Notes: generated by a model from the sequence alone, not told the origin. A stretch of DNA of 47,765 nucleotides from an uncultured Clostridia bacterium (GCA_964441745.1 CAYTYR010000005.1:62001-109765), one strand, 5' to 3'. Positions 4,271-39,614 are shown, counted from the stretch's first letter. A program made the numbers and translations.

Positions 4271-4289
4271 GTGAAGCAGTTATAAGTTT

Positions 4290-4337
4290 TCCCCTGCTGA
4301 TTTGTCTTAAAGGACAAATCAAAGACGCGGGGACAGG
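4290..4337 (-). repeat. REP-like 48-nt hairpin insertion with CCTG foot
   Basis: TCCCCTGCTGATTTGTC-TTAAAG-GACAAATCAAAGACGCGGGGA-CAGG; related copy at 13196-13234. Confidence 0.7.
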
Positions 4338-4389
4338 TAAGTGTTAAGTTTTGAGTTAAGGAAAAGTTCTTTACCATAATTAATAATTC

Positions 4390-4425
4390 TCCGCCTTTAA
4401 GCTTGGCGGATCCGCCTCTGGCGGA
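4390..4425. repeat. Tandem TCCGCC-loop-GGCGGA REP-like palindromes
   Basis: TCCGCCtttaagcttGGCGGA followed directly by TCCGCCtctGGCGGA. Confidence 0.8.
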
Positions 4426-4467
4426 AAAACTCAAAATTCAAAACTCAAAATTATTAGGCGGTTCTAA

Positions 4468-5304
4468 ATGATTACAGGAAAGACTAAAATTTGTGGCATA
4501 TTCGGTTATCCGATAGAGCATTCTCTTTCGCCTTTGATGCATAACGCTGCGTTTAAGGCGCTAGATCTTGATTATGTTTACATTGCGGTCAAAGTAGCTC
4601 CGGAGGATCTGGCCGCGGCCATTAAAGCGATCCGGGCCTTAGATCTCGTTGGCGTCAATATAACGATCCCGCATAAGGAAGCAGTTATCCCTTTATTGGA
4701 TGAATTAAGCCCTGAAGCCAAAGCTATCGGCGCAGTCAATACTATTGTGAATTGCGGCGGCAGGCTGATCGGTGACAATACCGATGGTAAAGGATTTATC
4801 AAAAGCCTGGTTGAAGAAAATAAGATCAGACTGCAGGGGAAAAAAGTAGTTTTACTGGGTGCCGGGGGAGCCGGCCGCTCGATTGGCGTTAGCTTGTTAA
4901 AGAATAAGATCCAGGTTCTTTATCTGTATGATGTGGCAGAGCAAAGGAGAAATTCTTTGGCTGCTGCCTTGAAATCCATTAGCTCTGCCAAACAGGTAAA
5001 AGCGATCAGCCAGAATGAACTTAAGGAAGCGATCAAAGATGCTGACATCCTGATCAATGCTACTCCAGTAGGAATGAAGCCAACCGATCCCTGCGTTGTA
5101 GAGCCCGCGCTCTTGACCCAGAAACTATTTATCTACGATGTCGTTTATAACTGTGAAACAGCTTTATTAAAAGCAGCCAAACGCAAAAAAATAAAATGCG
5201 CCAACGGATTGGGCATGCTGGTAAACCAGGGCGCGATCTCTTTCGAACTTTGGACTGGGAAAAAAGCGCCAGTAGCAGTTATGTGTAAAGCTTTATCCGC
5301 GTAA
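4468..5304 (+). CDS. aroE: Shikimate dehydrogenase
   Basis: HSLSP, NITIPHK, GAVNT, NTD and GAGGA motifs. Confidence 0.95.
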   Translation: MITGKTKICGIFGYPIEHSLSPLMHNAAFKALDLDYVYIAVKVAPEDLAAAIKAIRALDLVGVNITIPHKEAVIPLLDELSPEAKAIGAVNTIVNCGGRLIGDNTDGKGFIKSLVEENKIRLQGKKVVLLGAGGAGRSIGVSLLKNKIQVLYLYDVAEQRRNSLAAALKSISSAKQVKAISQNELKEAIKDADILINATPVGMKPTDPCVVEPALLTQKLFIYDVVYNCETALLKAAKRKKIKCANGLGMLVNQGAISFELWTGKKAPVAVMCKALSA

Positions 5305-5374
5305 TCCGGCTAGACTGCCATTGCAACTAGATTTACTAAGTGATATTCTGAAAAGATAAAGACAGGAGAAAAGT

Positions 5375-6508
5375 ATGTTAAGATTCTTAACAAGCGGGGA
5401 ATCACACGGCAAAGCATTAATGGCCATCCTGGAAGGTATCCCCGCCGGTCTTAAACTGCAGGAAGAAGATATCAATATCGAGCTGGGACGGAGACAGGTT
5501 GGTTACGGCCGCGGCCAGAGAATGCAAATTGAAAAAGACCAGGCGCAGATCATCGCCGGCGTACGTCATGGCTTGACTATTGCTGCGCCAATCGGATTAT
5601 TGATAGAGAATCGCGATTGGGAGAACTGGGTGAACAAAAAAGTTCCTCCGGTGACTGCGCCCCGGCCCGGGCACGCTGACTTGGCTGGGACCTTGAAATA
5701 TGATTTTGCAGATATCCGGGATGTGCTGGAACGTGCCAGCGCCAGGGAAACTGCCGTTCGCGTAGCTGTCGGTGCGGTGTGCCGGAAATTGCTGCGTGAA
5801 TTTAATATTAATATTTTCAGCCGCACCGCACAAATCGGCAAAATTACGGATTCTTCTCCCTGGCGCCTGACGGCCAAAGAATGGGCAATAATAGAAAATT
5901 CGCCGGTGCGCTGTTTAGGTAAAGATGAAGAAAACAGAATGATTAAAGCGATCGACCAGGCTAAGTCATCCGGCGACAGTGTCGGCGGAGTAGTTGAAAT
6001 TGCCGCTATTAATGTCCCTATTGGTTTGGGCAGCTATGTCCAATGGGATGCTAAACTTGATGGCCGTTTAGCCCAGGCTTTAATGAGTATCCAGGCGATC
6101 AAAGCAGTTGAGGTCGGATTAGGAACAAAAGCCGCCGGCTTGCCTGGCAGTCAGGCCCATGATGAGATATCCTTACTTAAGGGGCTCGGATTGGGGCATA
6201 AAACAAATCGCGCCGGCGGCATCGAAGGCGGTATGAGCAACGGGGAAATCATTGTCCTGCGGGCCAGCATGAAGCCCATAGCAACATTGACGAAGCCACT
6301 TCATAGTGTAGACTTAAAAACCGGCAAAGTGGCTAAAGCTACCGTAGAACGTTCAGATATATGCGCGGTACCGGCGGCTGGGGTCATTGCCGAGAATGTG
6401 GTTGCTTTTGAATTAGTCCGGGCGATGCAAGAGAAATTTGGGGGAGATAGCCTGCGCGAAATGAAGAGAAATTATCACGGGTATCTGGAACAAATACGCA
6501 GAAAGTAA
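5375..6508 (+). CDS. aroC: Chorismate synthase
   Basis: GESHG, PRPGHAD, RASARETA, GGIEGG and MKPI motifs. Confidence 0.97.
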   Translation: MLRFLTSGESHGKALMAILEGIPAGLKLQEEDINIELGRRQVGYGRGQRMQIEKDQAQIIAGVRHGLTIAAPIGLLIENRDWENWVNKKVPPVTAPRPGHADLAGTLKYDFADIRDVLERASARETAVRVAVGAVCRKLLREFNINIFSRTAQIGKITDSSPWRLTAKEWAIIENSPVRCLGKDEENRMIKAIDQAKSSGDSVGGVVEIAAINVPIGLGSYVQWDAKLDGRLAQALMSIQAIKAVEVGLGTKAAGLPGSQAHDEISLLKGLGLGHKTNRAGGIEGGMSNGEIIVLRASMKPIATLTKPLHSVDLKTGKVAKATVERSDICAVPAAGVIAENVVAFELVRAMQEKFGGDSLREMKRNYHGYLEQIRRK

Positions 6509-6529
6509 ATATAAAAAATAAAAAATTAC

Positions 6530-6640
6530 GGTGAGAGTTATAGAAGTAGGTATGGAAGTAGGTTTAAAGTTTGTGGTTTAGAGCCTAACACCCATAGACC
6601 TTATACCAAACTTACTTCTAAAACATAAACCTAATAACTT
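6530..6640. repeat. 6-nt periodic hairpin, GGAAGTA family, copy 1
   Basis: GAAGTAGGTATGGAAGTAGG ... ACCAAACTTACTTC; related copies at 11929, 18721 and 27193. Confidence 0.85.
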
Positions 6641-6656
6641 TTTTATCTGGAGAAAT

Positions 6657-7172
6657 ATGAACATAATTTTAACAGGATTTATGGCCAGCGGCAAAACTTC
6701 AGTCGGTAAAATACTAGCCGCTAAACTTAATATGAAATATATAGATGTCGACGAGACTATTGAAAAAAACACCAAGCAGACGATAACAGATATTTTTAAA
6801 CAGCATGGCGAAACTGTTTTTCGTGACATGGAGACAAAAGCTATTAAATGCGTGGCTATGCTGGATCACTATGTAATTTCTATTGGCGGTGGGGCGGTGA
6901 TGCGCGCGGAAAACATGCATGAATTGCGGTCCAACGGCAAATTGGTTTACTTGTCTGCTTCACCGGAAGCTATTTTAAAGCGGATCGGTGACGCCAGTAC
7001 CCGGCCGTTACTGGCCCATGAAGCGGATAAACTAAAAAAGATCAAAGAAATGCTCGCGCATCGGGAATCATATTATAAAGAATGTGATTTTCAGATAGAC
7101 ACAACGAAATTAGATATCAAGCAAGTAGTCGATCAGGCCGCTGAATGGTATGCTCACAGGTATAAAAAATGA
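6657..7172 (+). CDS. aroK: Shikimate kinase
   Basis: GFMASGKT, GETVFR, GGG and RPLL motifs. Confidence 0.95.
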   Translation: MNIILTGFMASGKTSVGKILAAKLNMKYIDVDETIEKNTKQTITDIFKQHGETVFRDMETKAIKCVAMLDHYVISIGGGAVMRAENMHELRSNGKLVYLSASPEAILKRIGDASTRPLLAHEADKLKKIKEMLAHRESYYKECDFQIDTTKLDIKQVVDQAAEWYAHRYKK

Positions 7173-8269
7173 AAAAGGTCAAAGTTAATTTAAAAGAAAA
7201 AAGCTATAATATTATCGTCAGGGCTGACCTGGCCAAAATAGGCCAGGCGCTGCGCACTTTAAAAATTGGCCAAAAAATAATGATCGTGACCAATCCCAAA
7301 GTGAGCCGCTGGTATCTGCCGAAAGTAGAGCTTAGCCTTAAAAGAGCCGGATTCACTGTACATCGCACCATTATACCTGACGGTGAGCGGTATAAATCAC
7401 AGGAATCCGCTAATAAGATCTATGCTAAATGTCTGCAATGTGGATTAGACCGGGGTGGGACGATATTGGCCTTAGGCGGCGGAGTGATCGGAGACCTGGC
7501 TGGTTTTGCCGCAGCTACATTTATGCGCGGAATCAACTTGGTCCAGGTACCGACCTCATTGCTGGCCCAGGTAGATTCCAGTGTCGGGGGAAAAGTAGGA
7601 GTCAACCTGCCTGATGGCAAAAATATGGTCGGCGCTTTTTACCAGCCCAAATTGGTTTATGCTGATCTTAAAACTCTCCAGACCCTGCCAGCCAAGGAAT
7701 TTGCACATGGCCTGGCTGAAGTAATCAAATATGGAGTCATCTATGATGCCAGCCTATTTACTTTCCTTGAAAAGAATATGGGCAAGCTTAAAAAATTGGA
7801 TGAGGCTGTTTTAGAGAAAGTTATTAGCCGCTGCTGTGCCATCAAAGCCGAGGTAGTGGCTCTGGATGAAAAAGAAAATAATTTACGGGCGATACTCAAT
7901 TTTGGCCATACGATAGGACATGCCTTGGAAGGCATCACCCGTTATAAAAAATATAAGCATGGGGAAGCTGTAGCTTTGGGCATGGTCGGAGCAATGAACA
8001 TAGCAATTAGTTTGCGGATGGCGGATGGCAGTTTAGAGACCAGACTGAAAGAGCTATTAACCAAAGCTGGCTTGCCGGTTAGCATCAAAGGGATTAAATT
8101 ATCCTGGCCGATTTTTTTACGCTTTCTGCAGCATGATAAAAAAACACTGGCTGGAAATATCCGGTTCGTTCTTCCTGTAGCAATCGGTAAAGTGAAAATC
8201 GTAAACACTGTGCCATTATCCGTGATAAAAAATGCTTTAGTCTCTTTGATTAAAGGCAGTTGCAAGTAA
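7169..8269 (+). CDS. aroB: 3-dehydroquinate synthase
   Basis: GGGVIGD, DSSVGGK, KNMVG and LNFGHT motifs. Confidence 0.97.
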   Translation: MKKVKVNLKEKSYNIIVRADLAKIGQALRTLKIGQKIMIVTNPKVSRWYLPKVELSLKRAGFTVHRTIIPDGERYKSQESANKIYAKCLQCGLDRGGTILALGGGVIGDLAGFAAATFMRGINLVQVPTSLLAQVDSSVGGKVGVNLPDGKNMVGAFYQPKLVYADLKTLQTLPAKEFAHGLAEVIKYGVIYDASLFTFLEKNMGKLKKLDEAVLEKVISRCCAIKAEVVALDEKENNLRAILNFGHTIGHALEGITRYKKYKHGEAVALGMVGAMNIAISLRMADGSLETRLKELLTKAGLPVSIKGIKLSWPIFLRFLQHDKKTLAGNIRFVLPVAIGKVKIVNTVPLSVIKNALVSLIKGSCK

Positions 8270-8330
8270 AGGAGAATGTGGAAAGAAAGATAGTTAAGGG
8301 AAAGAATTGTGCATGACCACAGTGATTTTT

Positions 8331-8550
8331 CAGGAAACTGTCACTTTTTATTCGCTCCAGTGTCGATTTTCAAGGCGTCAAAGGTCTTTTGACAACTCGG
8401 TGCCTCCGCAACTAGCCCTAAAGGGCGTCAGACCTGCCTACCGGCAGGCAGGCATGCTCGGCATCCAGAAACCAGAAGATTCCCTCGTTGTCTGCAAGCG
8501 TGCTTTGGCTGAAATCGACAAGCTTGCTCAAAATAATGACGAGTTCCCTG
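8331..8550. mobile_element. About 220-bp MITE/REPIN-like element with imperfect terminal inverted repeats and internal mini-hairpins
   Basis: caggaaactgtca...tgtcgatttt versus gaaatcgaca...tgacgagttccctg; internal GCCCtaaaGGGC and CCTGCCTACCGGCAGGCAGG. Confidence 0.55.
8433..8452. repeat. CCTGCCTACCGGCAGGCAGG REP-like palindrome
   Basis: Near-perfect 20-nt palindrome with CCTG at both ends. Confidence 0.8.
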
Positions 8551-8608
8551 ATTGAATAAATTCAACGAGTATTAATGAGACGGATTCTTAAATTAAGTTA
8601 TTATCTAA

Positions 8609-8638
8609 TGACCCCCTAAATCTATAAGATCTGACCCC
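8609..8638 (-). repeat. Two TGACCCC motifs (reverse complement of the GGGGTCAG element)
   Basis: tgacccc at 8609 and ctgacccc at 8631. Confidence 0.6.
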
Positions 8639-8670
8639 AAAAATATTGGTTCAGCGAAGGAGAAAATGAT

Positions 8671-9069
8671 ATGGCAAGAGGAAAAGGCTGGAAGATCAAA
8701 GGCAATCTGAAGTCACGCATTGGCAACCCGGTCACTTTTAGAACGCCAAAGGATGTGGGAGCCAAGGGAGGAACTCCTGTCTCCGGTGCTGTTGTTGACG
8801 AAGTGTGGGCAACGCCGGCGCTCAACACGTCACCTGCAAGACAAGCGCAAGACAAAGATGACTGGGGTGATTATTCATTCTGTGCCCAACTCATCAAGTG
8901 GGGTGAGAACAACCATTCCATTCGACTCGCCTACTACCGGCGGCGCGCCGGAGAAGACTGGTGGGAGTTTGCATCCCAAATGACGGTCAATAGTGATTGG
9001 CGAACCATCAAGGCTCTATTGGAAAGGACTCTCACTAAGACCGGATGGTTCTCGGATACCCCCAAATGA
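8671..9069 (+). CDS. Hypothetical protein (orphan, Trp-rich)
   Basis: 132-aa ORF with AAGGAG RBS; GC-richer than the adjacent island genes. Confidence 0.7.
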   Translation: MARGKGWKIKGNLKSRIGNPVTFRTPKDVGAKGGTPVSGAVVDEVWATPALNTSPARQAQDKDDWGDYSFCAQLIKWGENNHSIRLAYYRRRAGEDWWEFASQMTVNSDWRTIKALLERTLTKTGWFSDTPK

Positions 9070-9107
9070 GCCAAACAAAAGATAAATAAAAGCAGAGAAG
9101 GAGTAAG

Positions 9108-9488
9108 ATGAAACTTAAAGAGCAGGTATGTAGTTTAAAATTAGCGAAAGAGTTAAAAGAATTAGAAGTAGAGCAGGAGAGTTTATTTTACTGGTGTGAG
9201 TATGCCAAAGTTTGGGTTTTGGTTTACAGAGATAATATAGCGGAAGGTTTATCGGACACCGATAAAATTTCTGCTTTCACGGGTGCGGAGCTATGGGAAA
9301 TGATTAAGAAATGTCCAGGAATCAGTCGTAATATATTGGATGGTATGTGGACTGCTTTTTTTACTTGTGATACGAGTACGGATGAAGGGAATATTCATAG
9401 AACAGAAGCTGATATGAGAGCTATGGCTTTAGCAATGCATCTTTGGCCTGCTCGGGGTGGGAGACCAGAGAGTAAAGGAGATTATTAA
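9108..9488 (+). CDS. Hypothetical protein, phage-like
   Basis: AAGGAG RBS; QVCSLKLAKELKELEVEQESLFYW and SAFTxAEL resemble, from memory, uncharacterised phage proteins. Confidence 0.65.
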   Translation: MKLKEQVCSLKLAKELKELEVEQESLFYWCEYAKVWVLVYRDNIAEGLSDTDKISAFTGAELWEMIKKCPGISRNILDGMWTAFFTCDTSTDEGNIHRTEADMRAMALAMHLWPARGGRPESKGDY

Positions 9489-9549
9489 AAGTTAGAATAA
9501 TTTGCTTAATGTTTGGGCAAGAAATATTTGGAATCAAAGGAGGAAAGAT

Positions 9550-9633
9550 ATGAGCAAGTCTCGAGAGATAATAAAAGATAATACAGGTAGGCCTATTGCA
9601 ATCATAGATACTTATGATGATGGAAGGAAGTAA
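9550..9633 (+). pseudogene. 27-aa micro-ORF or truncated gene (MSKSREIIKDNTGRPIAIIDTYDDGRK)
   Basis: Strong AAAGGAGG RBS; the stop lies inside a 17-bp tandem duplication. Confidence 0.45.
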
Positions 9634-9673
9634 TGGGGTCAGGGAAGTAATGGGGTCAGTCCTTGAATTGGGA
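9626..9673 (+). repeat. Perfect 17-bp tandem duplication plus GGGGTCAG-N4-TGAAT element
   Basis: GGAAGTAATGGGGTCAG twice (9626-9642, 9643-9659), then tccttgaattggga. Confidence 0.85.
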
Positions 9674-9746
9674 GTTAAGGTAAGCCGACTTTACCCTTTG
9701 TAATCGGCAGAATATACCGATTTTGTATGTCAGAGAGGAAGATAAT

Positions 9747-10076
9747 ATGCGAAATAAAAAGAAAATTTCAAATAGTAAAGATATTATGCAATCACTGGAG
9801 AGTCATAAAGATATTTTGAAAAAATACAAGATTAAAAAAATTGGCTTATTTGGATCGTTTGTCCGGGGTCAGCAAAAGAAGAAAAGCGATATAGATTTGC
9901 TGGTGGAATTTGAAAAGAATATGTTTGACAGCGAATTTAACGGATATTTTGATAATTATGTGGGGTTACAATCAGCCCTGGAAAAAATACTTCACCGGAA
10001 AATTGATTTGCTTACCCCTGATATGATCAGTCCATATATCAAACCATATATTATAAAAGAGGTAAGATATGTCTAA
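9747..10076 (+). CDS. Minimal nucleotidyltransferase antitoxin (MNT/MntA-like)
   Basis: GLFGSFVRG...SDIDLLV Pol-beta motif; GAGAGG RBS before ATG 9747. Confidence 0.9.
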
Positions 10077-10410
10077 GGAATTTAAGCCTTTTTTGGAACA
10101 TATTTTAAAAGAAATAGAGTATTTAGAAAAGCATTCCAAGCTACCACTCGACTTTGAAGCATTTCTGAAAGATGAAACCCTCAAGAGGAGTTTTGTGCGC
10201 AGCTTAGAGATAATCGGCGAAGCGGTAAAGAATATACCGCTGGAGTTTAGAAAAAAGCATCCAAAAATCGATTGGAAGAAAATAGCCGGTATGCGGGATA
10301 TTCTTATCCATCAATATTTTGGAGTAGATTACAGGTCGGTGTGGGATATTGTTAAGCATAATATTCCGGAGCTTAAGAAGCAGGTAAAAGGGATTCTTAG
10401 TAAGAGTTAA
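10069..10410 (+). CDS. HEPN/DUF86 toxin (HepT-like RNase)
   Basis: LEIIGEA and RDILIHQY (Rx4HxY); overlaps the MNT gene. Confidence 0.9.
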
Positions 10411-10427
10411 TCAAAAGGGAGCATGCA

Positions 10428-10865: not shown

Positions 10866-10872
10866 CACCACT

Positions 10873-11919: not shown

Positions 11920-11928
11920 TAGATACAT

Positions 11929-12035
11929 GTTGTAGGTTGTAGATGTAAGTATGGAAGCAGGCAATAGTCTTTGGGTCCGAGCCTAAAACCATAGACCTCA
12001 GACCAAACTTACTTCCTAACCCAACACCTAAAAAC
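11929..12035. repeat. 6-nt periodic hairpin, GGAAGTA family, copy 2
   Basis: GTTGTAGGTTGTAGATGTAAGTATGGAAGCAGG ... AGACCAAACTTACTTCCTAACCCAACACC. Confidence 0.85.
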
Positions 12036-12055: not shown

Positions 12056-12613
12056 GTGATTACAGCGGGAGATTTTAGAAACGGATTGGTCTTTAAGTAT
12101 GAAGGGGAATTGTACAAAGTAGTGGAATTTCAGCATCATAAACCTGGTAAAGGCCGGGCCTTTATGCGTTCCAGGATTAAAAATATACGCAATGGGTCTG
12201 TGCTGGAACGGACATTTCGCCCTGATGAAAAAATAGAGAATATTACCCTGGAATTGCAAAAAATGCAATTTATGTATAAGCAGAATGAACGCTATGCCTT
12301 CATGGACCAATCATCTTATGAACAGGTAGAAATTGATAAGGACCATTTAGGAGACAATGCCAAATTTTTAAAAGAAGGACTGGAAGTTACAGTGGTTAAA
12401 CATGAAGGAGAAATTATCGGTGTTGACCTGCCTATTACTATTGAGCTGAAAGTGACCTACACTGAACCAGGATTGAAAGGGGACACAGTGTCGTCTGCCT
12501 ATAAGGCTGCCACCGTGGAAACTGGGGCAGTGATCAAAGTACCGCTTTTCATCGCTATTGGCGATGTAGTCATAATTGATACAAGGAACGGCGAATACCA
12601 GTCTAGAGCCTAG
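12056..12613 (+). CDS. efp: Elongation factor P
   Basis: KPGKG, PGLKGDT, VPLFI and DTR motifs. Confidence 0.97.
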   Translation: MITAGDFRNGLVFKYEGELYKVVEFQHHKPGKGRAFMRSRIKNIRNGSVLERTFRPDEKIENITLELQKMQFMYKQNERYAFMDQSSYEQVEIDKDHLGDNAKFLKEGLEVTVVKHEGEIIGVDLPITIELKVTYTEPGLKGDTVSSAYKAATVETGAVIKVPLFIAIGDVVIIDTRNGEYQSRA

Positions 12614-12707
12614 AGCGCAGATAGCATATGGCATATAGCTAATGGCAAAAACAAAGACGATAATGCTTCTGCTATACGCCATAAGCCATTAGCCATAAGC
12701 GCTTCTA
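12611..12707. repeat. 7-nt periodic hairpin, ATRGC family, copy 1
   Basis: agcgcag atagcat atggcat atagcta atggc ... gctatac gccataa gccatta gccataa gcgct. Confidence 0.85.
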
Positions 12708-13195: not shown

Positions 13196-13234
13196 CCCCC
13201 AGCTGATTCGCTGTGCGAATCAATACGCGGGGGG
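13196..13234. repeat. CCCC-GCTGATT...AATCA-ACGCGGGG hairpin, copy 2
   Basis: Shares outer arms with 4291-4332 but has a different, still paired, apical stem. Confidence 0.7.
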
Positions 13235-14677: not shown

Positions 14678-14680
14678 AAG

Positions 14681-14760
14681 CGGATTCAGACGGATTTTCA
14701 CTGATTCAGACTGATAAAATATTCGTTTGCATCAGTAGTTTTCATCTGTTTGCATCTGTA
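14681..14760. repeat. 10-nt periodic imperfect hairpin (CKGATT / ATCWGT)
   Basis: cggattcaga cggattttca ctgattcaga ctgata ... atcagt, atctgtttgc atctgt. Confidence 0.75.
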
Positions 14761-14770
14761 AAACGAGGTT

Positions 14771-15352
14771 GTGATGAAAGAAAAAATCAGCAAAATATTA
14801 GCTGCCCATGAACTTGCCTGCCGGGATGTGGCTAAAAATAACATCGGTGATATAGAAAAGATCGCCCGGGCGATTATTAATTGTTTTCGCCAGGGGAGTA
14901 AAGTTATATTTTTTGGCAACGGCGGCAGTGCTTCTGACGCCCAGCATCTGGCCACCGAACTAGTCTGCCGGTTGAAATTGGAACGTAAAGCGCTTCCAGC
15001 TTTGGCCTTAAATACGAATACCAGTCTTCTAACTGCCCAAGGCAATGATTATGGTTTTGATACTATTTTTTCCAGGCAAATAGAGGCTTTTGCCGCCAAG
15101 AATGATGTAGTCATTGGCCTCAGCACCAGTGGAAATTCAGAAAACGTGCTCAAAGCGATTGTCACGGCTAACAAGCTGGGGTGTACAACTATCGGCTTCA
15201 GCGGCAGCGACGGCGGGATGCTGGCTAAGACCGCTGGAATTAATTTTGTCGTATCCAGTAATGTTACTCAGCATATACAGGAAATGCATATCACGGCGGG
15301 ACATATTATTTGTGAATTGGTAGAAGAAGCGCTAGCGAAAAGCGGCGTATAG
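14771..15352 (+). CDS. gmhA: Phosphoheptose isomerase
   Basis: GNGGSASDAQH, GNDYG, STSGNS and IQEMH motifs. Confidence 0.95.
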   Translation: MMKEKISKILAAHELACRDVAKNNIGDIEKIARAIINCFRQGSKVIFFGNGGSASDAQHLATELVCRLKLERKALPALALNTNTSLLTAQGNDYGFDTIFSRQIEAFAAKNDVVIGLSTSGNSENVLKAIVTANKLGCTTIGFSGSDGGMLAKTAGINFVVSSNVTQHIQEMHITAGHIICELVEEALAKSGV

Positions 15353-15373
15353 CGGGTAGCGTATAGCGGATAG
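15345..15373. repeat. 7-nt tandem array (GCGKRTA), single arm
   Basis: gcgtata gcgggta gcgtata gcggata; contains the gmhA stop codon. Confidence 0.75.
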
Positions 15374-18714: not shown

Positions 18715-18720
18715 TAACAG

Positions 18721-18790
18721 GGTGAAGGTTGTGGAAGTAGGTATGGAAGTAGGTCTAAACTTACTTCCAAAACTTACACCTAATAACTTC
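18721..18790. repeat. 6-nt periodic hairpin, GGAAGTA family, copy 3 (shortest)
   Basis: GGTGAAGGTTGTGGAAGTAGGT pairs with ACTTACTTCCAAAACTTACACC at 20 of 22 positions including G-T. Confidence 0.85.
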
Positions 18791-18796
18791 GGCTTG

Positions 18797-18854
18797 AATC
18801 AGTGTAATCTTTTTTCGTAATCTGGGTAACCTCTGTCCGCCTCAGGCGGAGTTT
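18797..18854. repeat. AATCNGYGT 9-nt units plus TCCGCCTCAGGCGGA palindrome
   Basis: aatcagtgtaatc, aatctgggtaac, then ctgTCCGCCtcaGGCGGAgttt. Confidence 0.7.
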
Positions 18855-18872
18855 TAAAAAAAAGGAGCAAAA

Positions 18873-21393: not shown

Positions 21394-21401
21394 ATATAAA
21401 G

Positions 21402-21479
21402 CAAATACTAAATCCTAATTTCTAAATTCTAAACAATTTTGAATTTGTTTAGTATTTAGAGTTTAGATATTCGGATTTG
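21402..21479. repeat. 7-nt periodic hairpin (AWTHCTA family)
   Basis: aatacta aatccta atttcta aattcta aac ... gtttag tatttag agtttag atattcg gattt. Confidence 0.8.
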
Positions 21480-21495
21480 TTTTAGAGGAGGCTGG

Positions 21496-24910: not shown

Positions 24911-24914
24911 TTAC

Positions 24915-24949
24915 ATCCGCGTAATCGTATTTCGGAAATCCGCGCAATC
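24915..24949. repeat. AATCCGCGYAATC 9-nt-unit repeat
   Basis: atccgcgtaatc ... aatccgcgcaatc; the 12-mer is identical to 5295-5306. Confidence 0.6.
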
Positions 24950-24999
24950 AAGGGCTGAACGATTTTGTGAAGCCCAATAAGGGAGGCGAGAAAATATTG

Positions 25000-25701: not shown

Positions 25702-25724
25702 AGTAGAGGATACTACGTTGCTCT

Positions 25725-25777
25725 AATCGGTGTAATCCCTGTCCGCCTCTGGCGGAGTTTCAGAAATCTGTGTAATC
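25725..25777. repeat. AATCNGTGTAATC pair with nested CCTG-TCCGCCTCTGGCGGA
   Basis: aatcggtgtaatc [cctgtccgcctctggcgga] gtttcaga aatctgtgtaatc. Confidence 0.75.
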
Positions 25778-25802
25778 AATTCCGAGTGAAGCGAGGAATA
25801 AA

Positions 25803-27168: not shown

Positions 27169-27192
27169 AGACACGATTAATAGAAGAAGTAA

Positions 27193-27300
27193 GTTGTAGG
27201 TTGTGGAAGTAAGTATGGAAGTAGGAGGTAGGTTTTAAGGCTTAAACTACCTTCCTGAGACTTTAGACCAAACCTACTTCTAAACCCAACACCAAACTTC
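27193..27300. repeat. 6-nt periodic hairpin, GGAAGTA family, copy 4, between convergent genes
   Basis: GTTGTAGGTTGTGGAAGTAAGTATGGAAGTAGG ... AGACCAAACCTACTTCTAAACCCAACACC. Confidence 0.85.
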
Positions 27301-27304
27301 TCTT

Positions 27305-28516: not shown

Positions 28517-29179
28517 ATGAAGATGAAAAATTCTTTAGTTCGGTTATTCGCGGGCATAGTTATGTTCGGATTGTTAGCAGGGTGCGCTGGTTCTAAAGTC
28601 AGGGTGGATCTACCGCCACGGTTTGATGTGAGCTCTTACGCCTCCTATGGCATAGTGCAAATTAATTCCACTGGCGAAGAAAAGCTGGGGGGATTGGCTA
28701 CCCAGAAATTCATGCAGTATATGCTGCAGGGATCAAACCCGGGAGTGATCGTCCTGGAGCTAGGCAGCGAACCCATCGTCCTGGCGTCTGTGGCCAAAAG
28801 GCAGTTTGATCCGGAAAGTGTCAGGATGATCTGTGAAAAATATAAGGTCAATGCTTTGATTATCGGCGCCATCGATGTAGCCATGGAGAAGGTGAATGTT
28901 AAGTTTGGCATGGATCTGGCCTCGCTTAAGGCGCAATCCAGCGTCAAAGTCACCATGAATGCGAAAATATTTGAAGCGACCAGGGGCGCTACTGTCTGGA
29001 CGAATTCGCAGTTCGGTATCTGGAAAATGTCCGGCCTGACCGCAGATGCTGATGGGCTGAAATCGATCAATGTCACTACTGACCGGGAAACCAAGTATGA
29101 AAAGATTGTAGATGAACTTGCCTTTGCCATCACCAGGGATTTTCGTCCTTCTTACGAAATGCGGAAAGTGGAAAAATAA
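28517..29179 (+). CDS. Hypothetical lipoprotein (possibly CsgG/LpoB-like fold)
   Basis: Lipobox LAGC; VNALIIG and TRGATVW pattern; GGAGG RBS. Confidence 0.7.
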   Translation: MKMKNSLVRLFAGIVMFGLLAGCAGSKVRVDLPPRFDVSSYASYGIVQINSTGEEKLGGLATQKFMQYMLQGSNPGVIVLELGSEPIVLASVAKRQFDPESVRMICEKYKVNALIIGAIDVAMEKVNVKFGMDLASLKAQSSVKVTMNAKIFEATRGATVWTNSQFGIWKMSGLTADADGLKSINVTTDRETKYEKIVDELAFAITRDFRPSYEMRKVEK

Positions 29180-31648: not shown

Positions 31649-31650
31649 TA

Positions 31651-31733
31651 AGCGCATATAGCTAATGGCTAATAGCATATAGTTAGAATCAAATTCGCTG
31701 TTACCATAAGCCATATGCTATAAGCCATACGCG
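31651..31733. repeat. 7-nt periodic hairpin, ATRGC family, copy 2
   Basis: agcgcat atagcta atggcta atagcat atagt ... accataa gccatat gctataa gccatac gcg. Confidence 0.85.
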
Positions 31734-31742
31734 AGGTACTAA

Positions 31743-32591: not shown

Positions 32592-32597
32592 TAATCT

Positions 32598-33722
32598 ATG
32601 GCTGATCAAACTTCCATTATCATGCACCTGGATAGCGCGGTGTCATGGCGCGGCGGGCAGCAGCAAGTCTTGTCCCTGGTCCAGGGGTTGCGCCAACGCA
32701 ATATGATCAGCTTTTTAGCCTGTTCTCCTGATAGCATTTTATTTAATGAAGCTCTTTCCCGGATCATTTCTGTTTTCCCTCTGCATATATTTGGGGAATG
32801 GGATCTCCTGGCGGTGAGACGTTTGCGTCAGATGATCAAGAACCTCAAAGTGAACATCCTGCATTGCCATGACAGCCATGCCCATACTATCGGCATTCTG
32901 GCTGCCCTGGGACTGGATTCCTGCAAAGTAGTAGTGACCCGCCGGGTTGATTTCCGGGTCGGTAATAATTTAATCAGCAAATTTAAATATAAGCGGCATG
33001 TTGATAAGTTTATCGCGGTTAGCGCCGGCGTGAAAAAAGTTTTGGAATTGGATGGCATTGATCCGGCTTCGATCGCCGTGGTACATGATGGCATAGATAT
33101 CAACCGATTTCTTTGCCTGGAAAAAGCTGATCACCTGTACCGCGAGTTCGGCTTGGATCCATCCAAACCAGTCATCGGCAACATAGCTGCTTTAGCGCCC
33201 CATAAGGATCAGCGAAACCTGTTACAGGCGGCGAAAATTGTCTTAGAGCAGATCCCGGAAGCGCAATTTCTGGTCGTGGGAACTGGCGAGCTGGAATTAG
33301 AATTAAAACAATTGGCAGAAGATTTAAAAATACTGGATAAAGTGAAATTTACCGGTTTCCGGAAAGATGTACCGCAAATATTGACTATTCTCAATATATT
33401 TGCGGTTTCTTCATATTTAGAGGGATTAGGCTCTTCAACACTGGAAGCAATGGCGGCAGGATTACCCATCATCGCTACTAGTACCGGAGGCATTCCCGAG
33501 ATAGTTGAGAACAGTATTAATGGTATTTTAGTCCCGCCTCGCGATAGCGCTGCCTTAGCCAAAGGTATCATAGGGTTACTTAGGGATAATAAAAGGCGGG
33601 AGAAAATGGGCAGTGCCAGCCTGCAGATGGTCAAGAACTTCAGCCTAGACAAAATGGTGGAAGGGAATGTGGCAGTTTATAATCAGGTAACAGCAGACAG
33701 CGGACAGCGGACAGAAAAATAG
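32598..33722 (+). CDS. GT4 glycosyltransferase
   Basis: WRGGQQQ, EGLGSSTLEA and GGIPE motifs. Confidence 0.9.
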   Translation: MADQTSIIMHLDSAVSWRGGQQQVLSLVQGLRQRNMISFLACSPDSILFNEALSRIISVFPLHIFGEWDLLAVRRLRQMIKNLKVNILHCHDSHAHTIGILAALGLDSCKVVVTRRVDFRVGNNLISKFKYKRHVDKFIAVSAGVKKVLELDGIDPASIAVVHDGIDINRFLCLEKADHLYREFGLDPSKPVIGNIAALAPHKDQRNLLQAAKIVLEQIPEAQFLVVGTGELELELKQLAEDLKILDKVKFTGFRKDVPQILTILNIFAVSSYLEGLGSSTLEAMAAGLPIIATSTGGIPEIVENSINGILVPPRDSAALAKGIIGLLRDNKRREKMGSASLQMVKNFSLDKMVEGNVAVYNQVTADSGQRTEK

Positions 33723-33780
33723 AATTACGTTTTCAATTGCTCTATTACCTGAACGCTGTCAAGTGAACGCTGACCGCTGA
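33690..33780. repeat. 7-nt periodic hairpin (ACAGCRG / CTGWMCG); left arm translated in the GT4 C-terminus
   Basis: acagcag acagcgg acagcgg acag ... ctgaacg ctgtcaa gtgaacg ctgaccg ctga. Confidence 0.8.
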
Positions 33781-33789
33781 AGAGGCAGC

Positions 33790-34533
33790 ATGCAAACTAT
33801 CGGCGTCTACATTATCACTAAAAACGAAGAGCACAACATCCGCACTTGTCTGGAAAGCGTAAAATGGGCGGATGAAATTGTGTTGGTAGATGATTATTCC
33901 ACAGACAAGACTGTGGAAATAGCCCGGGAATATAAATGCCGGATCATTCAAAGTCATTGGCGCGGCTATGGGAAACAAAAGCAGTTTGCCCTCGAGCGCC
34001 TTTCCACTGAATGGGCCTTGAATATTGATGGAGATGAACAAGTATCATCGAAGTTAGCCACTGAAATACTTTACGAAATAAACCGCGGACTATTAACCAT
34101 TGACGGCTATGAAATTCCTTTTGAGTTTTATTTCCTGGAGCACAGGATGCGCTTTGGCGGCTGCGGCAGCGAAAAACATCTCCGCCTTTTCCGCAGAAAA
34201 AAAGGAAAGTACGATAAAACTACGATCCATGAGACACTGGCCGTAGATGGCAAAATAGGTTTGCTGAAGAATCCGGTTATCCATCATAGCTACCGTGATC
34301 AGGATGAATATTTCCAGAAGTTTGAGGAATATACCACCCTGGCCGCGCAGGAAATGCATCAGGCTGGAAAGAAAGCGCGCTGGTATAAGTTCCTAAGTTT
34401 CCCCTGGGAGCTTTTCCGCCGGGTAATCCTTTATGGCGGATTTTTAGATGGCCTGGCCGGACTGAAATACGCCTGGTATTCCTCGCTCTATGTTTTGGTA
34501 AAATATAAAAAACTATCAAAAATACAGCAGTAA
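33790..34533 (+). CDS. GT2 glycosyltransferase, KdtX/WaaE-like
   Basis: KNEE, VDDYSTD, IDGDE, LRLFR and HE motifs. Confidence 0.88.
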   Translation: MQTIGVYIITKNEEHNIRTCLESVKWADEIVLVDDYSTDKTVEIAREYKCRIIQSHWRGYGKQKQFALERLSTEWALNIDGDEQVSSKLATEILYEINRGLLTIDGYEIPFEFYFLEHRMRFGGCGSEKHLRLFRRKKGKYDKTTIHETLAVDGKIGLLKNPVIHHSYRDQDEYFQKFEEYTTLAAQEMHQAGKKARWYKFLSFPWELFRRVILYGGFLDGLAGLKYAWYSSLYVLVKYKKLSKIQQ

Positions 34534-34562
34534 GAATAAGTATTCTCAGGAGAATTTTTCCA

Positions 34563-35759: not shown

Positions 35760-36573
35760 ACGGAGGAAAACTTTGAAAATACTGCTTATTATCGCTGGAT
35801 TATGCGCTTTAGGCTTCAGCGCCCGCTGGAATTGGTGGCGCCTGCCGAAAAAAGGCGTGGCTATCCTCATGTATCACAAGGTCGGTTTACCGCCGCCAAA
35901 CTCTAAATTGAAGAAATTATGGGTTAGCCCGGATAAATTCGATCGGCAGATGCGCTATCTGCAAGAGAAAGCTATTCCCGTCATCACTTTTGCTGAATAT
36001 TATACAATGTTACAGGAGAAAAGAGTCCCGGCCAAAGCGGTCATCATTACTTTTGATGATGGCTATCAGGATAATTACAACGAAGCCTTTCCAGTATTAA
36101 AAAAATATGGATTTAAAGCCATGTGTTTCCTGGTGAGCGATACGGTCGGCATTGTCAATAAGTGGCATGATCCGGCTGCAGAACCGCACCAAAAAATGTT
36201 ATCCCTGGCGCAGGTCAAGGAAATGCAGTCTGCCGGGATAGAATTTGGTTCCCATACTTTAAGTCATTTAAATCTTAATGAATTGGACATTGAGGCAGCC
36301 AATATACAGATTGCTAAAAGTAAGCCTGTACTGGAACAGGTCTTGGGTAAGCCAGTGGATATTTTTGCCTACCCATACGGCGCTGGGGCCTATAATCCGG
36401 CAGTCAAGCAATTAGTCAAGCCGGCAGGATACAAACTGGCAGTCGGTATCAAACAATCCATCAACCTGCGCGGGCAGGAAGACCTGTTTGCCCTCAAACG
36501 CATCACCGTCCGTGGCGACGAGAATATGTTCGATTTCTATCTACAGATAACTCGTGGAAAGAATAGGCTTTAG
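35695..36573 (+). CDS. CE4 polysaccharide deacetylase in the LPS cluster (true start probably near 35746)
   Basis: LMYH, TFDDG, GSHTLSH and AYPYG; N-terminal TM. Confidence 0.85.
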   Translation: MPQKKSQSGSTYPRWMSMMKTRRRKTLKILLIIAGLCALGFSARWNWWRLPKKGVAILMYHKVGLPPPNSKLKKLWVSPDKFDRQMRYLQEKAIPVITFAEYYTMLQEKRVPAKAVIITFDDGYQDNYNEAFPVLKKYGFKAMCFLVSDTVGIVNKWHDPAAEPHQKMLSLAQVKEMQSAGIEFGSHTLSHLNLNELDIEAANIQIAKSKPVLEQVLGKPVDIFAYPYGAGAYNPAVKQLVKPAGYKLAVGIKQSINLRGQEDLFALKRITVRGDENMFDFYLQITRGKNRL

Positions 36574-36594
36574 CTAAAGTGGTAAAGTGGTAAG

Positions 36595-37602
36595 ATGAAA
36601 ATAATAGAATTAAAACCAAATGCGAAAATATTAGTGATCCAACTACGGCGGATTGGCGATGTCCTGCTGACCACTCCGGTTTTGCGGGCTTTGCGCCGCA
36701 AATTCACCGAAGCGCAAATCGATTTCCTGGTAGAAAAGCCAGGCGCGGAAATATTAGCCGGTAATCCGTATATTAATAATTTGCTGATCTACGGCAAAAA
36801 AGACCATTTTAAGTGGCTGCGCCGGTTGCGGGCCGAAAAGTATGACCTAATCCTGGACTTTTTAGGCAATCCCAGGACTGCCTGGATCGTTGGTTTAAGC
36901 GGTGCTAAATACCGCCTTGGGTTTACCCGCCGGGGCCGCGATTTTGTGTACAACGTGAAGGTCAAGCCGGATCAGGCGCCAAAATATGTCCCGGCGCATA
37001 AGCTAGACTTGCTCAAACCATTGGGTATAGAAGCTAATAATGTGAATCTGGATCTTATAGTCAATGAATCAGCTCAAGCGCGTATCCAAAAATTCCTGAC
37101 CAAGGAAAAGATATTGCCTGGTGATATGCTGGTCGGTATCAGCCCCACCAGCCGGCGCCAGGCGCGGAGATGGCTCAAGCAGGGATTTGCTGAAATAGCT
37201 GACTGCCTGATGCAAAAATATAATGCTAAAGTAATTTTCCTGTGGGGTCCGGGAGAAGAAACATATATAGACGACATTATTAGTTTGATGAAGAAAAGGC
37301 CGGTTAAGTCCCCGGCCCTGAGCATAACTGAATCTATCGCTTTGACTAATTCATTAAAACTTTTTATTGGCAATGACAATGGCCCGATGCATATAGCCCA
37401 AGGACTAAAAATACCTTCTATCGTTTTATTTGGACCGACCCAGAGCGCCAATTGGAATGAACCAGGCCCGAATAATATCGCGGTTAAAGCTGACGTTACC
37501 TGCCTGGAATGTAATAAACAGGAATGTGCTGACTTGGTCTGCATGGAAAGAATCACTGTCCAGATGGTAGAAGAAGCTATTAAGAAGGTGGTGCCTTTAT
37601 GA
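36595..37602 (+). CDS. GT9 heptosyltransferase-family protein
   Basis: IGDVLLTTP, GNDNGPMHIA and LFGPT motifs. Confidence 0.9.
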   Translation: MKIIELKPNAKILVIQLRRIGDVLLTTPVLRALRRKFTEAQIDFLVEKPGAEILAGNPYINNLLIYGKKDHFKWLRRLRAEKYDLILDFLGNPRTAWIVGLSGAKYRLGFTRRGRDFVYNVKVKPDQAPKYVPAHKLDLLKPLGIEANNVNLDLIVNESAQARIQKFLTKEKILPGDMLVGISPTSRRQARRWLKQGFAEIADCLMQKYNAKVIFLWGPGEETYIDDIISLMKKRPVKSPALSITESIALTNSLKLFIGNDNGPMHIAQGLKIPSIVLFGPTQSANWNEPGPNNIAVKADVTCLECNKQECADLVCMERITVQMVEEAIKKVVPL

Positions 37603-38729
37603 CCCGGAAGATCCAGGACCGTTTTCTCAAGATTGGTAAAGGCGAAAAGGAAGCTCCTGTTGCCTTAGACTTGTTCCTGGCTGTCTTGAGCTGGCTCTAT
37701 ATAGCTATTGTTAAAACAAGGCGGCTGATCTACGAAAAGCTAAAAAAGAAAAAGCATCTTTCAGCAGCGGTCATCAGTGTAGGCAATATCACTGTAGGGG
37801 GCACGGGTAAGACCCCATTTGTCATGATGCTGGCGAAATACCTGAAAAACAGGAAGAAAAAAGTGGCCATCTTGAGCCGCGGCTATAAGCGGAAAAAATC
37901 GCCTGGACGGGGTGAAGGAATTGAGAAAGGGATTAGCGTGGTCTCAACTGGCAAAGATGTCCTACTGACCCCGGAAGAAGCTGGTGATGAACCCTACATG
38001 ATGGCCAAGTACCTGGCTAATGTGCCGGTTATGGTGGGCCGTGATCGGATCAAAAGCGGCCAATATGCCATTGCCAGCTTTAACAGTGAAGTATTGATCC
38101 TGGATGACGCTTTCAGCTATTATCCGCTATCTCGCAATTTAGAGGTAGTGCTGATTGACGCCACATGTCCGTTTGGCAATCATCATTGCCTGCCGCGCGG
38201 TATTATGCGGGAACCGATGAGCAGCCTGAAAAGGGCAGACATAATTGCCTTAACCAAATCTAACCTGGTCAGTCCTGAAGAAGTGGACTTGATCATTAAC
38301 AACCTAAAAAAATACAACCCGTACGCGGCTATCCTGAAATGCGTGCATAAACCGATCGATCTGATCAATCTGGCTACCGGGGAAACGATGCCCCTGAGTT
38401 TCCTGCGCCATAAGGAAATAGCAGCTTTGTCCAGTATCGGTTCGCCAGAATCATTTGAAAAGATCCTGGAAGAAGTCGGGGCCAAAGTCGTGAAAACCAT
38501 CCGCTATCCAGACCACCATTATTACACCAGGGATAATTTTATCCAGATCCTGGAAGAAGCCGAATACAATTTTATTGTTACGACGGAAAAAGATACGACC
38601 CGGTTTAAAAAGGAATTCTGGAATCTGGAAAAAATAGCCCGGATCAACTTTTTCTCTCTGCGGATAGAGATGCAGATCATCAAGGGAGAAGCTGAGTGGC
38701 TCAAAAAACTCAAACAATTAGTTATCTAG
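37599..38729 (+). CDS. lpxK: Tetraacyldisaccharide 4'-kinase
   Basis: SVGNITVGGTGKTP, SRGY, GDEP, LDDAF, PDHH and TTEKD motifs. Confidence 0.95.
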   Translation: MTRKIQDRFLKIGKGEKEAPVALDLFLAVLSWLYIAIVKTRRLIYEKLKKKKHLSAAVISVGNITVGGTGKTPFVMMLAKYLKNRKKKVAILSRGYKRKKSPGRGEGIEKGISVVSTGKDVLLTPEEAGDEPYMMAKYLANVPVMVGRDRIKSGQYAIASFNSEVLILDDAFSYYPLSRNLEVVLIDATCPFGNHHCLPRGIMREPMSSLKRADIIALTKSNLVSPEEVDLIINNLKKYNPYAAILKCVHKPIDLINLATGETMPLSFLRHKEIAALSSIGSPESFEKILEEVGAKVVKTIRYPDHHYYTRDNFIQILEEAEYNFIVTTEKDTTRFKKEFWNLEKIARINFFSLRIEMQIIKGEAEWLKKLKQLVI

Positions 38730-39601
38730 AATATTTCCTGATACGCTTATTCATCAGTTTAATACGGTTATTGCCATATCGCTGGGCCTTAAAACTGGGT
38801 TCTGGTTTGGGAACGCTGGTATTCAAGGTTTGGGGCCAGCGCCGTCAGATCACGATCAAAAACCTGACCAAAACTTTCCCCGATAAAAATCACGCTGAAA
38901 TCAGGAATATAGCTATCAGCGTTTACCGTAATATTGGCCAAACCCTGATTGAGTTTATTAGAGCCGGTGTCTGGAGTAAAGAGCAGTTGTTTAAACAGGT
39001 TTTATTCGAAGGCCGGGAATATTTAGATGGGGCGCTGGCTAAAGGTAAGGGAGTCTTGCTCTTAACAGCGCATTTTGGTAATTGGGAATTGTTAGGAATA
39101 GCGCTCAGCGCGGCCGGGTATAAATTGAATGTGCTGGCCCGGCCGCTGGATAATCCGTTACTGGACAAAGTAGTGAATAATATCCGCCGTAAATTCGGTA
39201 CCTGGATCATTGCCAATAGCAATAGTATCAAGGATGTGATCAGGGTCCTGCATAAAAATGAAACAATTGGCATCCTGATGGACCAGAACCTTTATGAAAA
39301 TGCGACTTTTGTTGATTTTTTCGGTGATTTAGCGGCAACTACCCCGATCATCCCGTTATTAGCCCGGAAAACCGGCGCAGCGGTGATCCCGATACGGATA
39401 GTAAGGCTAAAAAATAATCAGCTTCAGGTGATCGTAGAACCAGAAGTAATCTTCCAGGCTAATCCTGACTGCGAGGAATTTGTGCGGAACAATACCAGGC
39501 ATTGCAATGAAGTGCTAGAACAATGGATCAGGCAAGATCCTGAACAATGGTTCTGGGTACATAATAGATGGAAAACACGGCCAAAGAAAGACAGCGTATA
39601 G
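38696..39601 (+). CDS. lpxL: Lipid A late acyltransferase (LpxL family)
   Basis: HFGNWE, DQ and PEQWFWVHNRWK motifs. Confidence 0.88.
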   Translation: MAQKTQTISYLEYFLIRLFISLIRLLPYRWALKLGSGLGTLVFKVWGQRRQITIKNLTKTFPDKNHAEIRNIAISVYRNIGQTLIEFIRAGVWSKEQLFKQVLFEGREYLDGALAKGKGVLLLTAHFGNWELLGIALSAAGYKLNVLARPLDNPLLDKVVNNIRRKFGTWIIANSNSIKDVIRVLHKNETIGILMDQNLYENATFVDFFGDLAATTPIIPLLARKTGAAVIPIRIVRLKNNQLQVIVEPEVIFQANPDCEEFVRNNTRHCNEVLEQWIRQDPEQWFWVHNRWKTRPKKDSV

Positions 39602-39614
39602 CGGATAGCGTAGA
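39594..39614. repeat. 7-nt tandem array (GCGKAKA), single arm
   Basis: gcgtata gcggata gcgtaga; contains the lpxL stop; same family as 15345. Confidence 0.65.

Follow-up and report, generated by a model that had tools for sequence, protein, structure and literature searches.

The periodic imperfect hairpins that lie between the housekeeping genes of a 47,765-nt stretch of DNA from an uncultured Clostridia bacterium (GCA_964441745.1, CAYTYR010000005.1:62001-109765; G000:C5:62001-109765 in the present nomenclature, hereafter the window) were analysed. These hairpins are probably gene-less members, that is miniature or decayed copies, of palindromic cassette families which resemble the intervening sequences (IVS) of rRNA and are located outside rRNA. 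The full-length cassettes of the same genome carry a four-helix-bundle (FHB) protein gene of the PF05635/TIGR02436 family between two complementary arms of short tandem units. The assembly of the source genome (G000) comprises 2.07 Mb in 39 contigs and is 98% complete, and five congeners (G001-G005) were compared with it.

The genes of the window are densely packed housekeeping genes, nearly all on the plus strand (shikimate pathway, efp, accBC, heptose/lipid A). Gaps were read by eye between 4271 and 39622, and two-armed elements of short degenerate tandem units were found in 10 of the 18 gaps of at least 60 nt, every element sitting between protein-coding genes. The initial annotation had listed 15 sites of such periodic elements, two of them as single arms. 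The fold test, using 150 dinucleotide shuffles on both strands and given as z(+)/z(-), upheld ten of these, with z of -2.2 to -6.5 on at least one strand. The remaining five, namely three sites described as 9-nt repeats (18797, 24915 and 25725) and two single arms (15345 and 39594), showed no fold beyond chance in the shuffle test. The 9-nt group consists of one-sided GTAATC repeats with a small TCCGCC..GGCGGA stem and lies outside the hairpin set. Periods of 7 and 10 were recovered as given by Tandem Repeats Finder (TRF), the former at 4426, 12674, 15345, 21403 and 33690 and the latter at 14681 and 14738, while the supposed 6-nt family was called with a period of 12 (6539, 18732) having a 6-nt sub-period. 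The hairpin at 4278, listed as a 7-nt site, is non-periodic; the 7-nt arms of that region, of GAGTTTT type, occupy roughly 4338-4361 and 4426-4452 and enclose a loop containing small GC stems. When a GC-rich short stem with a T run was sought, 0 of the 10 periodic hairpins were terminator-like, and the window gave no Rfam family at gathering score, no tRNA and no rRNA.

Seven TIGR02436/PF05635 FHB genes were found in G000, all of them above the cut-off of the hidden Markov model (HMM); the gene at locus L007 scored 59 bits against a cut-off of 33.8. The FHB profile matched PDB entries 2GSC (E 3e-29) and 2RLD (E 9e-28), unlike the single L007 protein, which gave no match in a PDB search. Periodic arms adjoin all seven genes, in accordance with what had been put forward for TIGR02436 genes in the initial annotation; the link put forward for GxxExxY genes (TIGR04256) did not hold, the HMM giving 0 matches in G000. 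Six of the seven genes are enclosed by two complementary arms of families seen in the window hairpins, and the seventh is 5'-truncated with a 3' array only (eight AACTCGC units). That the same arm families flank these genes bears out the proposal of a shared architecture and of one system with single-gene cassettes. The five congeners contributed 21 further FHB matches. Flank complementarity, taken as the local alignment of the upstream flank with the reverse complement of the downstream flank, reached the 95th percentile of 1804 G000 genes (score of at least 30) in 18 of the 25 analysable cassettes of the genus. Other genes found between same-family arms (HU, HIT, ETF, Psd, GFO/IDH, ABC permease) were rejected as cargo, being housekeeping genes between two neighbouring elements.

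Each FHB lineage has its own arm unit. The eight protein pairs with the same arms showed 72-93% identity, whereas the 291 pairs with different arms had a median of 26% and none exceeded 61%, and at least 14 lineage/arm combinations were counted in the genus from arm motifs labelled by hand.

Two kinds of atypical FHB genes were also observed in the congeners. The orthologous loci L070 (G002:C63) and L077 (G004:C48) encode 160-aa FHB homologues with a C-terminal extension, without arms and 89% conserved, beside a gene which is probably xseB; they may represent a domesticated copy. L064 (G005:C43:14456-14776), the second GGCACAAAG-armed FHB gene of G005, has an in-frame TAA and is a decaying cassette.

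The arm families are dispersed throughout G000. The F6 family, with GGAAGTAGGTATGG arms, was found by BLAST at 54-63 loci, the range being over four query copies, and the other elements at 43 (TCTAAAT), 31 (AGCGTAT arm), 23 (F7a), 19 (GTAATC element), 17 (CCCCTGC hairpin) and 16 (GAGTTTT) loci. Seven arm patterns gave tens of matches and the reversed-pattern controls gave 0. With fixed patterns, 278 of 298 arrays fell in non-coding DNA, which makes up 9% of the genome; the pattern-based division into solo and paired arms overcounts solo arms because partner arms are degenerate. Fifty-five full-length gene-less F6 copies could be aligned over about 115 nt, including a shared non-periodic loop, at about 80% identity.

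The abundance of the arms was compared with the presence of the cognate cassette. Arms of cassettes resident in G000 occupy 55, 23, 12, 9, 38 and 58 loci there, and arms of cassettes found only in congeners occupy 1, 4, 1, 2, 0, 1, 0, 2, 10, 0 and 0. Counts for ten arm families in the six genomes (Table 1) had a median of 18.5 in FHB-positive cells (n=18) and 2 in FHB-negative cells (n=42). Permuting within rows yielded an equally extreme result in 0 of 20000 cases; with each pattern's source genome left out, p was 0.002. The co-distribution unites hairpins and cassettes in a single family system but is no demonstration that the protein moves the hairpins.

Table 1. Pattern counts of ten arm families in six genomes (c, FHB cassette with those arms present)
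Arm family	G000	G001	G002	G003	G004	G005
ATCAGG	13	1	10	87 c	11	6
GCTGGAAG	0	0	8 c	10	4 c	0
GGTGTAAAG	2	0	16	26 c	0	1
AGTCGCTAGT	7	49 c	0	9	22 c	16
F6	46 c	2	40 c	8	10	0
AGCGTAT	72 c	15	0	55	50 c	56
TCTAAAT	28 c	0	21	12	8	4
GGCACAAAG	0	10 c	1	2	0	15 c
CGGTATA	0	0	1	7 c	6	6 c
CGTTCGT	1	1	3 c	6 c	4 c	2

Synteny with the five congeners is good and the coding DNA is about 75-88% identical, and the content of orthologous junctions was found to turn over. Eight junctions named in the initial annotation were scored by eye in six genomes, 41 of the 48 cells being scorable. No element was present in five cells (pmbA-aroE and accC-gmhA in G002; pepP-efp, yfcE-cinA and GT4-GT2 in G004), one cell held an unrelated 708-nt insert, and the remaining cells held hairpins or one-sided arrays of about a dozen unit families. 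The family of G000 was kept in only about 5 of the 33 scored cells of the five relatives. At pepP-efp, F6 occurs also in G003 and, in decayed form, in G002, G005 has another family in its place, and G004 has no element (38-nt spacer); at yfcE-cinA, F6 occurs in G002 and the TCTAAAT family in G005, with no element in G004 (20-nt spacer). The efp-accB junction carries four other unit families in the congeners. Its arms in G003 (ACGAGTT/AACTCGC) and G004 (ACGAGTC/GACTCGC) are one base apart in nearly every unit, with the other arm matching, which reflects concerted change in place or, alternatively, the insertion of sister families. At the tldD-epimerase junction F7a is doubled in G001, and G002-G005 have other contents.

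Whole cassettes were also seen to be exchanged. The L007 site carries an F6 cassette with its gene in G000 and G002 (proteins 90% identical), an ATCAGG-armed cassette in G003 whose protein is at most 28% identical to the other analysed FHB proteins and beside which a leftover F6 right end persists, a gene-less hairpin of a third family in G005 and no element in G004. The L005 site has a GAGTTTT cassette in G000 and CGTTCGT cassettes in G002, G003 and G004. The filled, gene-less and absent states foreseen in the initial annotation were thus seen at L007 and other sites, and the filled state was missing from the eight junctions it had named. Variants in relatives, cargo genes between arms and arms folding better than shuffled sequence, the three points on which that proposal had been staked beforehand, were all found.

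At L081 (G003:C50) and L082 (G004:C60), orthologous to the G000:C2:120 kb site, a HepT/MntA-like pair, so named from reading the translations and not by HMM, lies within or beside CGTTCGT arms, and the FHB gene of L082 in G004 is truncated to 67 aa. The contigs of relatives stop at junctions where other genomes have hairpin elements, at aroC-aroK in G001 and G004 and at several others in G001, so the repeats may break short-read assemblies.

The following arrangement is proposed on the basis of these comparisons. A full-length cassette consists of an FHB gene of some 120 aa, flanked on the left by an arm of 3-8 tandem units of 6-8 nt and on the right by the complementary arm, and would behave as selfish DNA spreading or turning over at the DNA level via its inverted arms. 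The FHB protein, as a pentamer, or else a host enzyme would probably read the repeat units, and the gene-less hairpins would be decayed cassettes or miniatures like MITEs, the miniature inverted-repeat transposable elements. In transcripts, RNase III, encoded in all six genomes of the genus, would cut the arm stem as in rRNA IVS; the elements would be tolerated within operons because the arms form a long transcript stem which this enzyme can cut. The architecture, family specificity, co-distribution and turnover are direct observations. It is a more speculative and rather doubtful step that the FHB pentamer binds the 3-8 units of its own arms and drives or protects the spread of the cognate hairpins, which would make the system a transposase-free counterpart of RAYT/REPIN (REP-associated tyrosine transposase and its repeats, REP standing for repetitive extragenic palindromic).

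Several results weigh against the reading of the hairpins as members of mobile cassette families. The AGCGTAT pattern gave 55 matches in G003 and 56 in G005 with no cognate FHB gene found, these assemblies being 94% and 91% complete, and G002 has 16 GGTGTAAAG and 21 TCTAAAT matches without a cognate FHB gene. Related genomes inherit genes and hairpins together, so the association is no proof of dependence. An FHB gene was present in 0 of the 41 scored cells at the eight junctions in the six genomes. The F6 copies are only about 80% alike, at least one of them (pepP-efp) predates the split of G000 and G003, and they give no evidence of recent transposition. No target-site duplication was detected at pepP-efp, yfcE-cinA or the L007 site, a weak test as few sites were compared. 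No mobility enzyme was identified, and the cassettes encode no transposase. No preference for folding of the sense strand was found: mispairs of G-U and A-C type numbered 141:122, and the mean energy of F6 was -34.4 for sense and -35.9 for antisense, the sense strand being more stable in only 22 of 55 copies, which gives no sign of selection for a sense RNA structure.

An alternative is that the hairpins are RNA elements serving the host, such as RNase III sites, REP-like 3'-end stabilisers as in E. coli operons, or attenuators, with the FHB genes as passengers; this is considered unlikely. In its favour, the elements almost always lie between co-directional genes, F6 is placed at a median of 10 nt past the upstream gene and 22 nt ahead of the next start, 54 F6 copies are sense to the flanking genes compared with 4-5 antisense, RNase III is present and the IVS sets a precedent. 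The orientation bias is, however, inseparable from replication direction. All F6-flanking gene pairs are on the strand of positive GC skew and 92% of the junctions of the genome are co-directional, so the bias could follow transcription or replication; no F6 copy between lagging-strand genes was found in G000, so the two are not separable. The lack of a sense-strand folding advantage gives no support to a purely RNA-level function, nor to the mRNA-processing structures offered as an alternative in the initial annotation, and no terminator-like hairpin was obtained. Moreover, unrelated families or nothing at all occupy the same junction in congeners, which means that no junction needs a given element. 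The gene-strand bias of G000 is itself extreme, with 1656 co-directional, 77 convergent and 73 divergent junctions in the map based on open reading frames (ORFs).

The initial annotation had regarded the hairpins as empty or relic landing sites, that is, integron-like pre-existing structured loops which receive FHB genes. The cassette system which it postulated was borne out, and the landing pads themselves fit less well than gene-less copies and are quite improbable. The position of the gene at the hairpin apex of the F6 cassette (G000:C2:115542-116094), between GGTTTA and AGCCTAAC, would suit them, as would the different cassettes at one junction and the example of nesting at efp-accB of G002, where one hairpin lies inside the loop of another. 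Each FHB lineage occurs only with its own arms, though, where a generic pad would mix them; the gene-less F6 copies have another loop and another right arm than the resident F6 cassette, and no recombinase is linked. Since the arms co-vary with the FHB lineage and the gene-less F6 copies share their loop, the arms appear to travel with the element and not to wait for cargo. Nesting is shown by this example and not as a rule: a crude motif test detected CAGTAAG-type arms on both sides of F6 in only 3 of 55 copies, compared with 4 of 379 in the control.

The population structure is like that of REP/REPIN-RAYT, in which a single-copy gene is flanked by an inverted short repeat that is also dispersed as gene-less intergenic hairpins. 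The family-specific pairing, with repeat abundance going with the cognate gene, is common to both. The flanked gene here differs in being a 120-aa helical bundle without a known catalytic motif, not an HUH transposase, and the arms here are tandem 6-8-nt units. It is very unlikely that the hairpins are REP/REPIN-like repeats moved by the IS200-type Y1 (RAYT-like) transposases of the genome with no involvement of FHB. PF01797 matches do number 8 in G000 and 2-5 per congener, and REP-type elements are likewise short intergenic palindromes with strand bias, but in the four full-length Y1 genes whose flanking repeats are visible these are ATGGGGTCAG / CTGACCCCAT and not periodic arms, the genes between periodic arms are FHB and not Y1, and the arm family follows the FHB lineage. 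The Y1 genes with their flanking GGGGTCAG/CTGACCCC repeats are a separate REP/RAYT-like system.

Formation of simple-sequence repeats (SSRs) in place by slippage, with no dispersal, is suggested by the variable unit number, by the single arms at 15345 and 39594 and by the one-base sister units on both arms at efp-accB in G003/G004, which suggest concerted in-place change, but is highly improbable and largely refuted by the roughly 115 nt, non-periodic loop included, that 55 F6 copies share and by the recurrence of the same families in congeners as well as at tens of junctions that are unrelated.

The reading as gene-less cassette members was compared with other known elements, of which the ORF-bearing IVS of rRNA come nearest. 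The IVS of Coxiella is described as having a 28-bp terminal stem, tandem GACAGAT heptamers ahead of an S23p ORF and RNase III cleavage within the stem, and is there called a selfish element (PMC4990558). The 23S rRNA IVS of Coxiella burnetii and Leptospira and the present elements are alike in the long stem formed by complementary termini, in the PF05635 ORF in the loop and in the tandem heptamers of variable number in or beside the stem. Long-stem termini are found in the elements here, and the ORF in the loop is found in the full-length cassettes of the genome, the window hairpins being gene-less. The present elements differ in lying between protein-coding genes and in the number of arm families, a single genome having many of them and tens of gene-less copies of each. 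The elements are not located in an rRNA helix and are therefore not classed as IVS but read as working like one.

The GGGAATC arrays of Xanthomonas and Nostoc are intergenic heptamers with 70 and 75 convergent pairs in two Xanthomonas genomes (Rehm et al. 2015, PMC4692102). They were interpreted as G-quadruplex formers, and S23p/FHB genes are not mentioned in that paper, in which neither 'S23' nor 'intervening' occurs. The likeness lies in 7-nt intergenic tandem units near the upstream ORF, mostly between co-directional genes and often as inverted pairs; in the present elements most units are not G-rich, and the units are linked to FHB cassettes. The elements here are tandem 7-nt intergenic units, often in inverted pairs, as in the intergenic heptamer SSR class. 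The short tandemly repeated repetitive (STRR) sequences of cyanobacteria are another class of intergenic heptamer repeats.

Avd, a protein of diversity-generating retroelements (DGRs), is reported to be essential to retrohoming and homologous to PF05635 (PMC10053308), and it is of the same protein fold family as the FHB proteins. None of the six genomes of the genus gave a match to the reverse transcriptase PF00078, which means that the FHB genes here are not DGR parts. MITEs resemble the gene-less hairpins in being short and non-coding, with terminal inverted repeats, many copies and a related longer gene-bearing element; the long form here differs in carrying FHB only and no transposase, and no target-site duplication was seen. 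No description of FHB cassettes with periodic arms outside rRNA was found in the literature covered, which excluded subscription journals and supplements.

The distribution of the cassettes extends beyond the genus. A scan of one genome per species with 10 closer FHB sequences as query gave 599 relatives, of which the best 80 loci were taken, 75 having full flanks. Among these 75 loci, 52, from many phyla, exceeded the 95th percentile of mismatched-flank controls, with an arm period of 7 in 32, 8 in 10 and 11 in 1, and 9 under the periodicity cut-off. Carriers included Flavobacterium, Capnocytophaga, Thiohalocapsa, Bosea and Adhaeretor, and many metagenome-assembled genomes of Patescibacteria, Acidobacteriota and Planctomycetota. 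Among relatives FHB is patchy (17 of 41 genomes), and neither the sister genus nor two genomes of the same class yielded it. One FHB-negative genome of the same class (G007) has plain short spacers at pepP-efp-accB and 0 period-7 arrays in 100 kb, against 10-16 in G000, in what is a small sample. With TRF, 100 kb from each of four genomes gave 0 and 1 period-7 arrays for the FHB-negative and 3 and 9 for the FHB-positive, which is suggestive only. TRF counts were used as an ungapped inverted-repeat finder was too insensitive as a density measure (4-8 per 100 kb even in G000).

To our knowledge, no function is known for the widespread PF05635/TIGR02436 proteins except in DGRs, heptamer repeats between genes have been on record for decades with no mechanism, and rRNA IVS have no known means of spread. 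The evidence puts these three in one element class, in which complete cassettes are exchanged at individual operon junctions and each lineage has its own matching set of gene-less hairpins. About half of the larger gaps between genes in the genome are occupied by the elements, which may also break assemblies. If the FHB protein does read its own units, the rRNA IVS, the intergenic heptamer excess (STRR, Xanthomonas arrays) and the function of PF05635 would be joined in one answer.

The positions of the elements in the window are summarized in Table 2. The CCCCTGC...GCGGGG hairpin also precedes the FHB cassette at G000:C2:120 kb, and the interval 33690-33722 falls within the 3' end of the GT4 ORF.

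Table 2. Repeat elements of the window, with the fold test and the related loci and cassettes in G000
Element	Position	Strand	z(+)/z(-)	Loci and remarks
CCCCTGC...GCGGGG hairpin, non-periodic	4291..4332	.	-4.3/-3.6 (4285-4338)	17 loci; 5' of GAGTTTT-type arms
GAGTTTT/AAAACTC 7-nt hairpin, gene-less	4338..4455	.	-2.0/-2.8 (4330-4462)	16 loci; arm type of FHB cassette L005
F6 (GGAAGTAGGTATGG arms, 12/6-nt period), full-length gene-less, aroC-aroK	6528..6645	+	-4.4/-1.9	
F6 element, pepP-efp	11925..12035	+	-2.3/-3.0	
F7a hairpin (GCATATGGC / GCCATAAGC, 7-nt units), efp-accB	12611..12705	.	-3.3/-5.7	23 loci; arm type of FHB cassette L002
10-nt-period hairpin (CGGATTCAGA / GTTTGCATCT), accC-gmhA	14678..14762	.	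-5.3/-1.6	low-copy, 4 loci
Single AGCGTAT-type arm (GCGTATAGCGGATA), not a hairpin	15345..15373	.		31-55 loci of arm type; arm type of FHB cassette L001
Short F6 (arms only, minimal loop), downstream of livK	18718..18795	+	-5.2/-2.7	
GTAATC direct repeats + TCCGCCTCAGGCGGA stem + T/A run, not a periodic hairpin	18797..18865	.	-0.7/-1.4	19 loci
TCTAAAT-type 7-nt hairpin, yfcE-cinA	21397..21485	.	-6.5/-6.4	43 loci; arm type of FHB cassette L006
GTAATC/CGCGTAATC direct repeats, no significant fold	24911..24966	.	-0.2/+0.7	
GTAATC repeats around TCCGCCTCTGGCGGA stem, weak fold	25715..25790	.	-0.6/-2.3	19 loci
F6 element, convergent mltG/def gap	27180..27304	+	-2.2/-4.5	
F7a hairpin, tldD-epimerase gene	31649..31735	.	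-2.2/-3.3	
ACAGCGG / CGCTG 7-nt hairpin, left arm in GT4 3' end	33685..33785	.	-3.3/-5.7	4 loci
Two-unit AGCGTAG-type remnant	39594..39616	.		no fold (shuffle test)

Other repeats were observed in the window. A second non-periodic hairpin, CCCC(T/A)GCTGATT...AATCAA..ACGCGGGG, lies at 13196-13234, in addition to the copy at 4291-4332 (17 loci, no Rfam match). The segment 8330-8552 belongs to a dispersed repeat family of some 220 nt that occupies 13 loci in G000 and recurs many times in the congeners; the 68-nt ends of this repeat form near-perfect inverted repeats around an ankyrin-repeat gene at G000:C7:90148-91485. At 9620-9722 the 17-nt direct repeat GGAAGTAATGGGGTCAG occurs twice and is followed by a match to the leader of the Y1 (IS200-like, about 315-331 aa) transposase genes of G000.

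Larger differences in gene content were also noted. The 2.1-kb insert between aroB and aroQ (8270-10427) contains two ORFs without a family match and an MntA/HepT toxin-antitoxin pair; in G003 and G004 the two flanking genes stand 84 nt and 195 nt apart, and in G002 the insert, of 2.3 kb, is a different one. A 220-aa ORF at 28517-29179 gave no family match and no tblastn match in the syntenic regions of the five congeners. The gap from the ACT gene to the next gene measures 859 nt in the window compared with 88-277 nt in relatives. Towards the end of the window (43000-47765) the GC content falls to 31-37%, and this region, which encodes a 938-aa PglX/BREX-like adenine methyltransferase and ORFs without assignment, is probably an acquired defence island.

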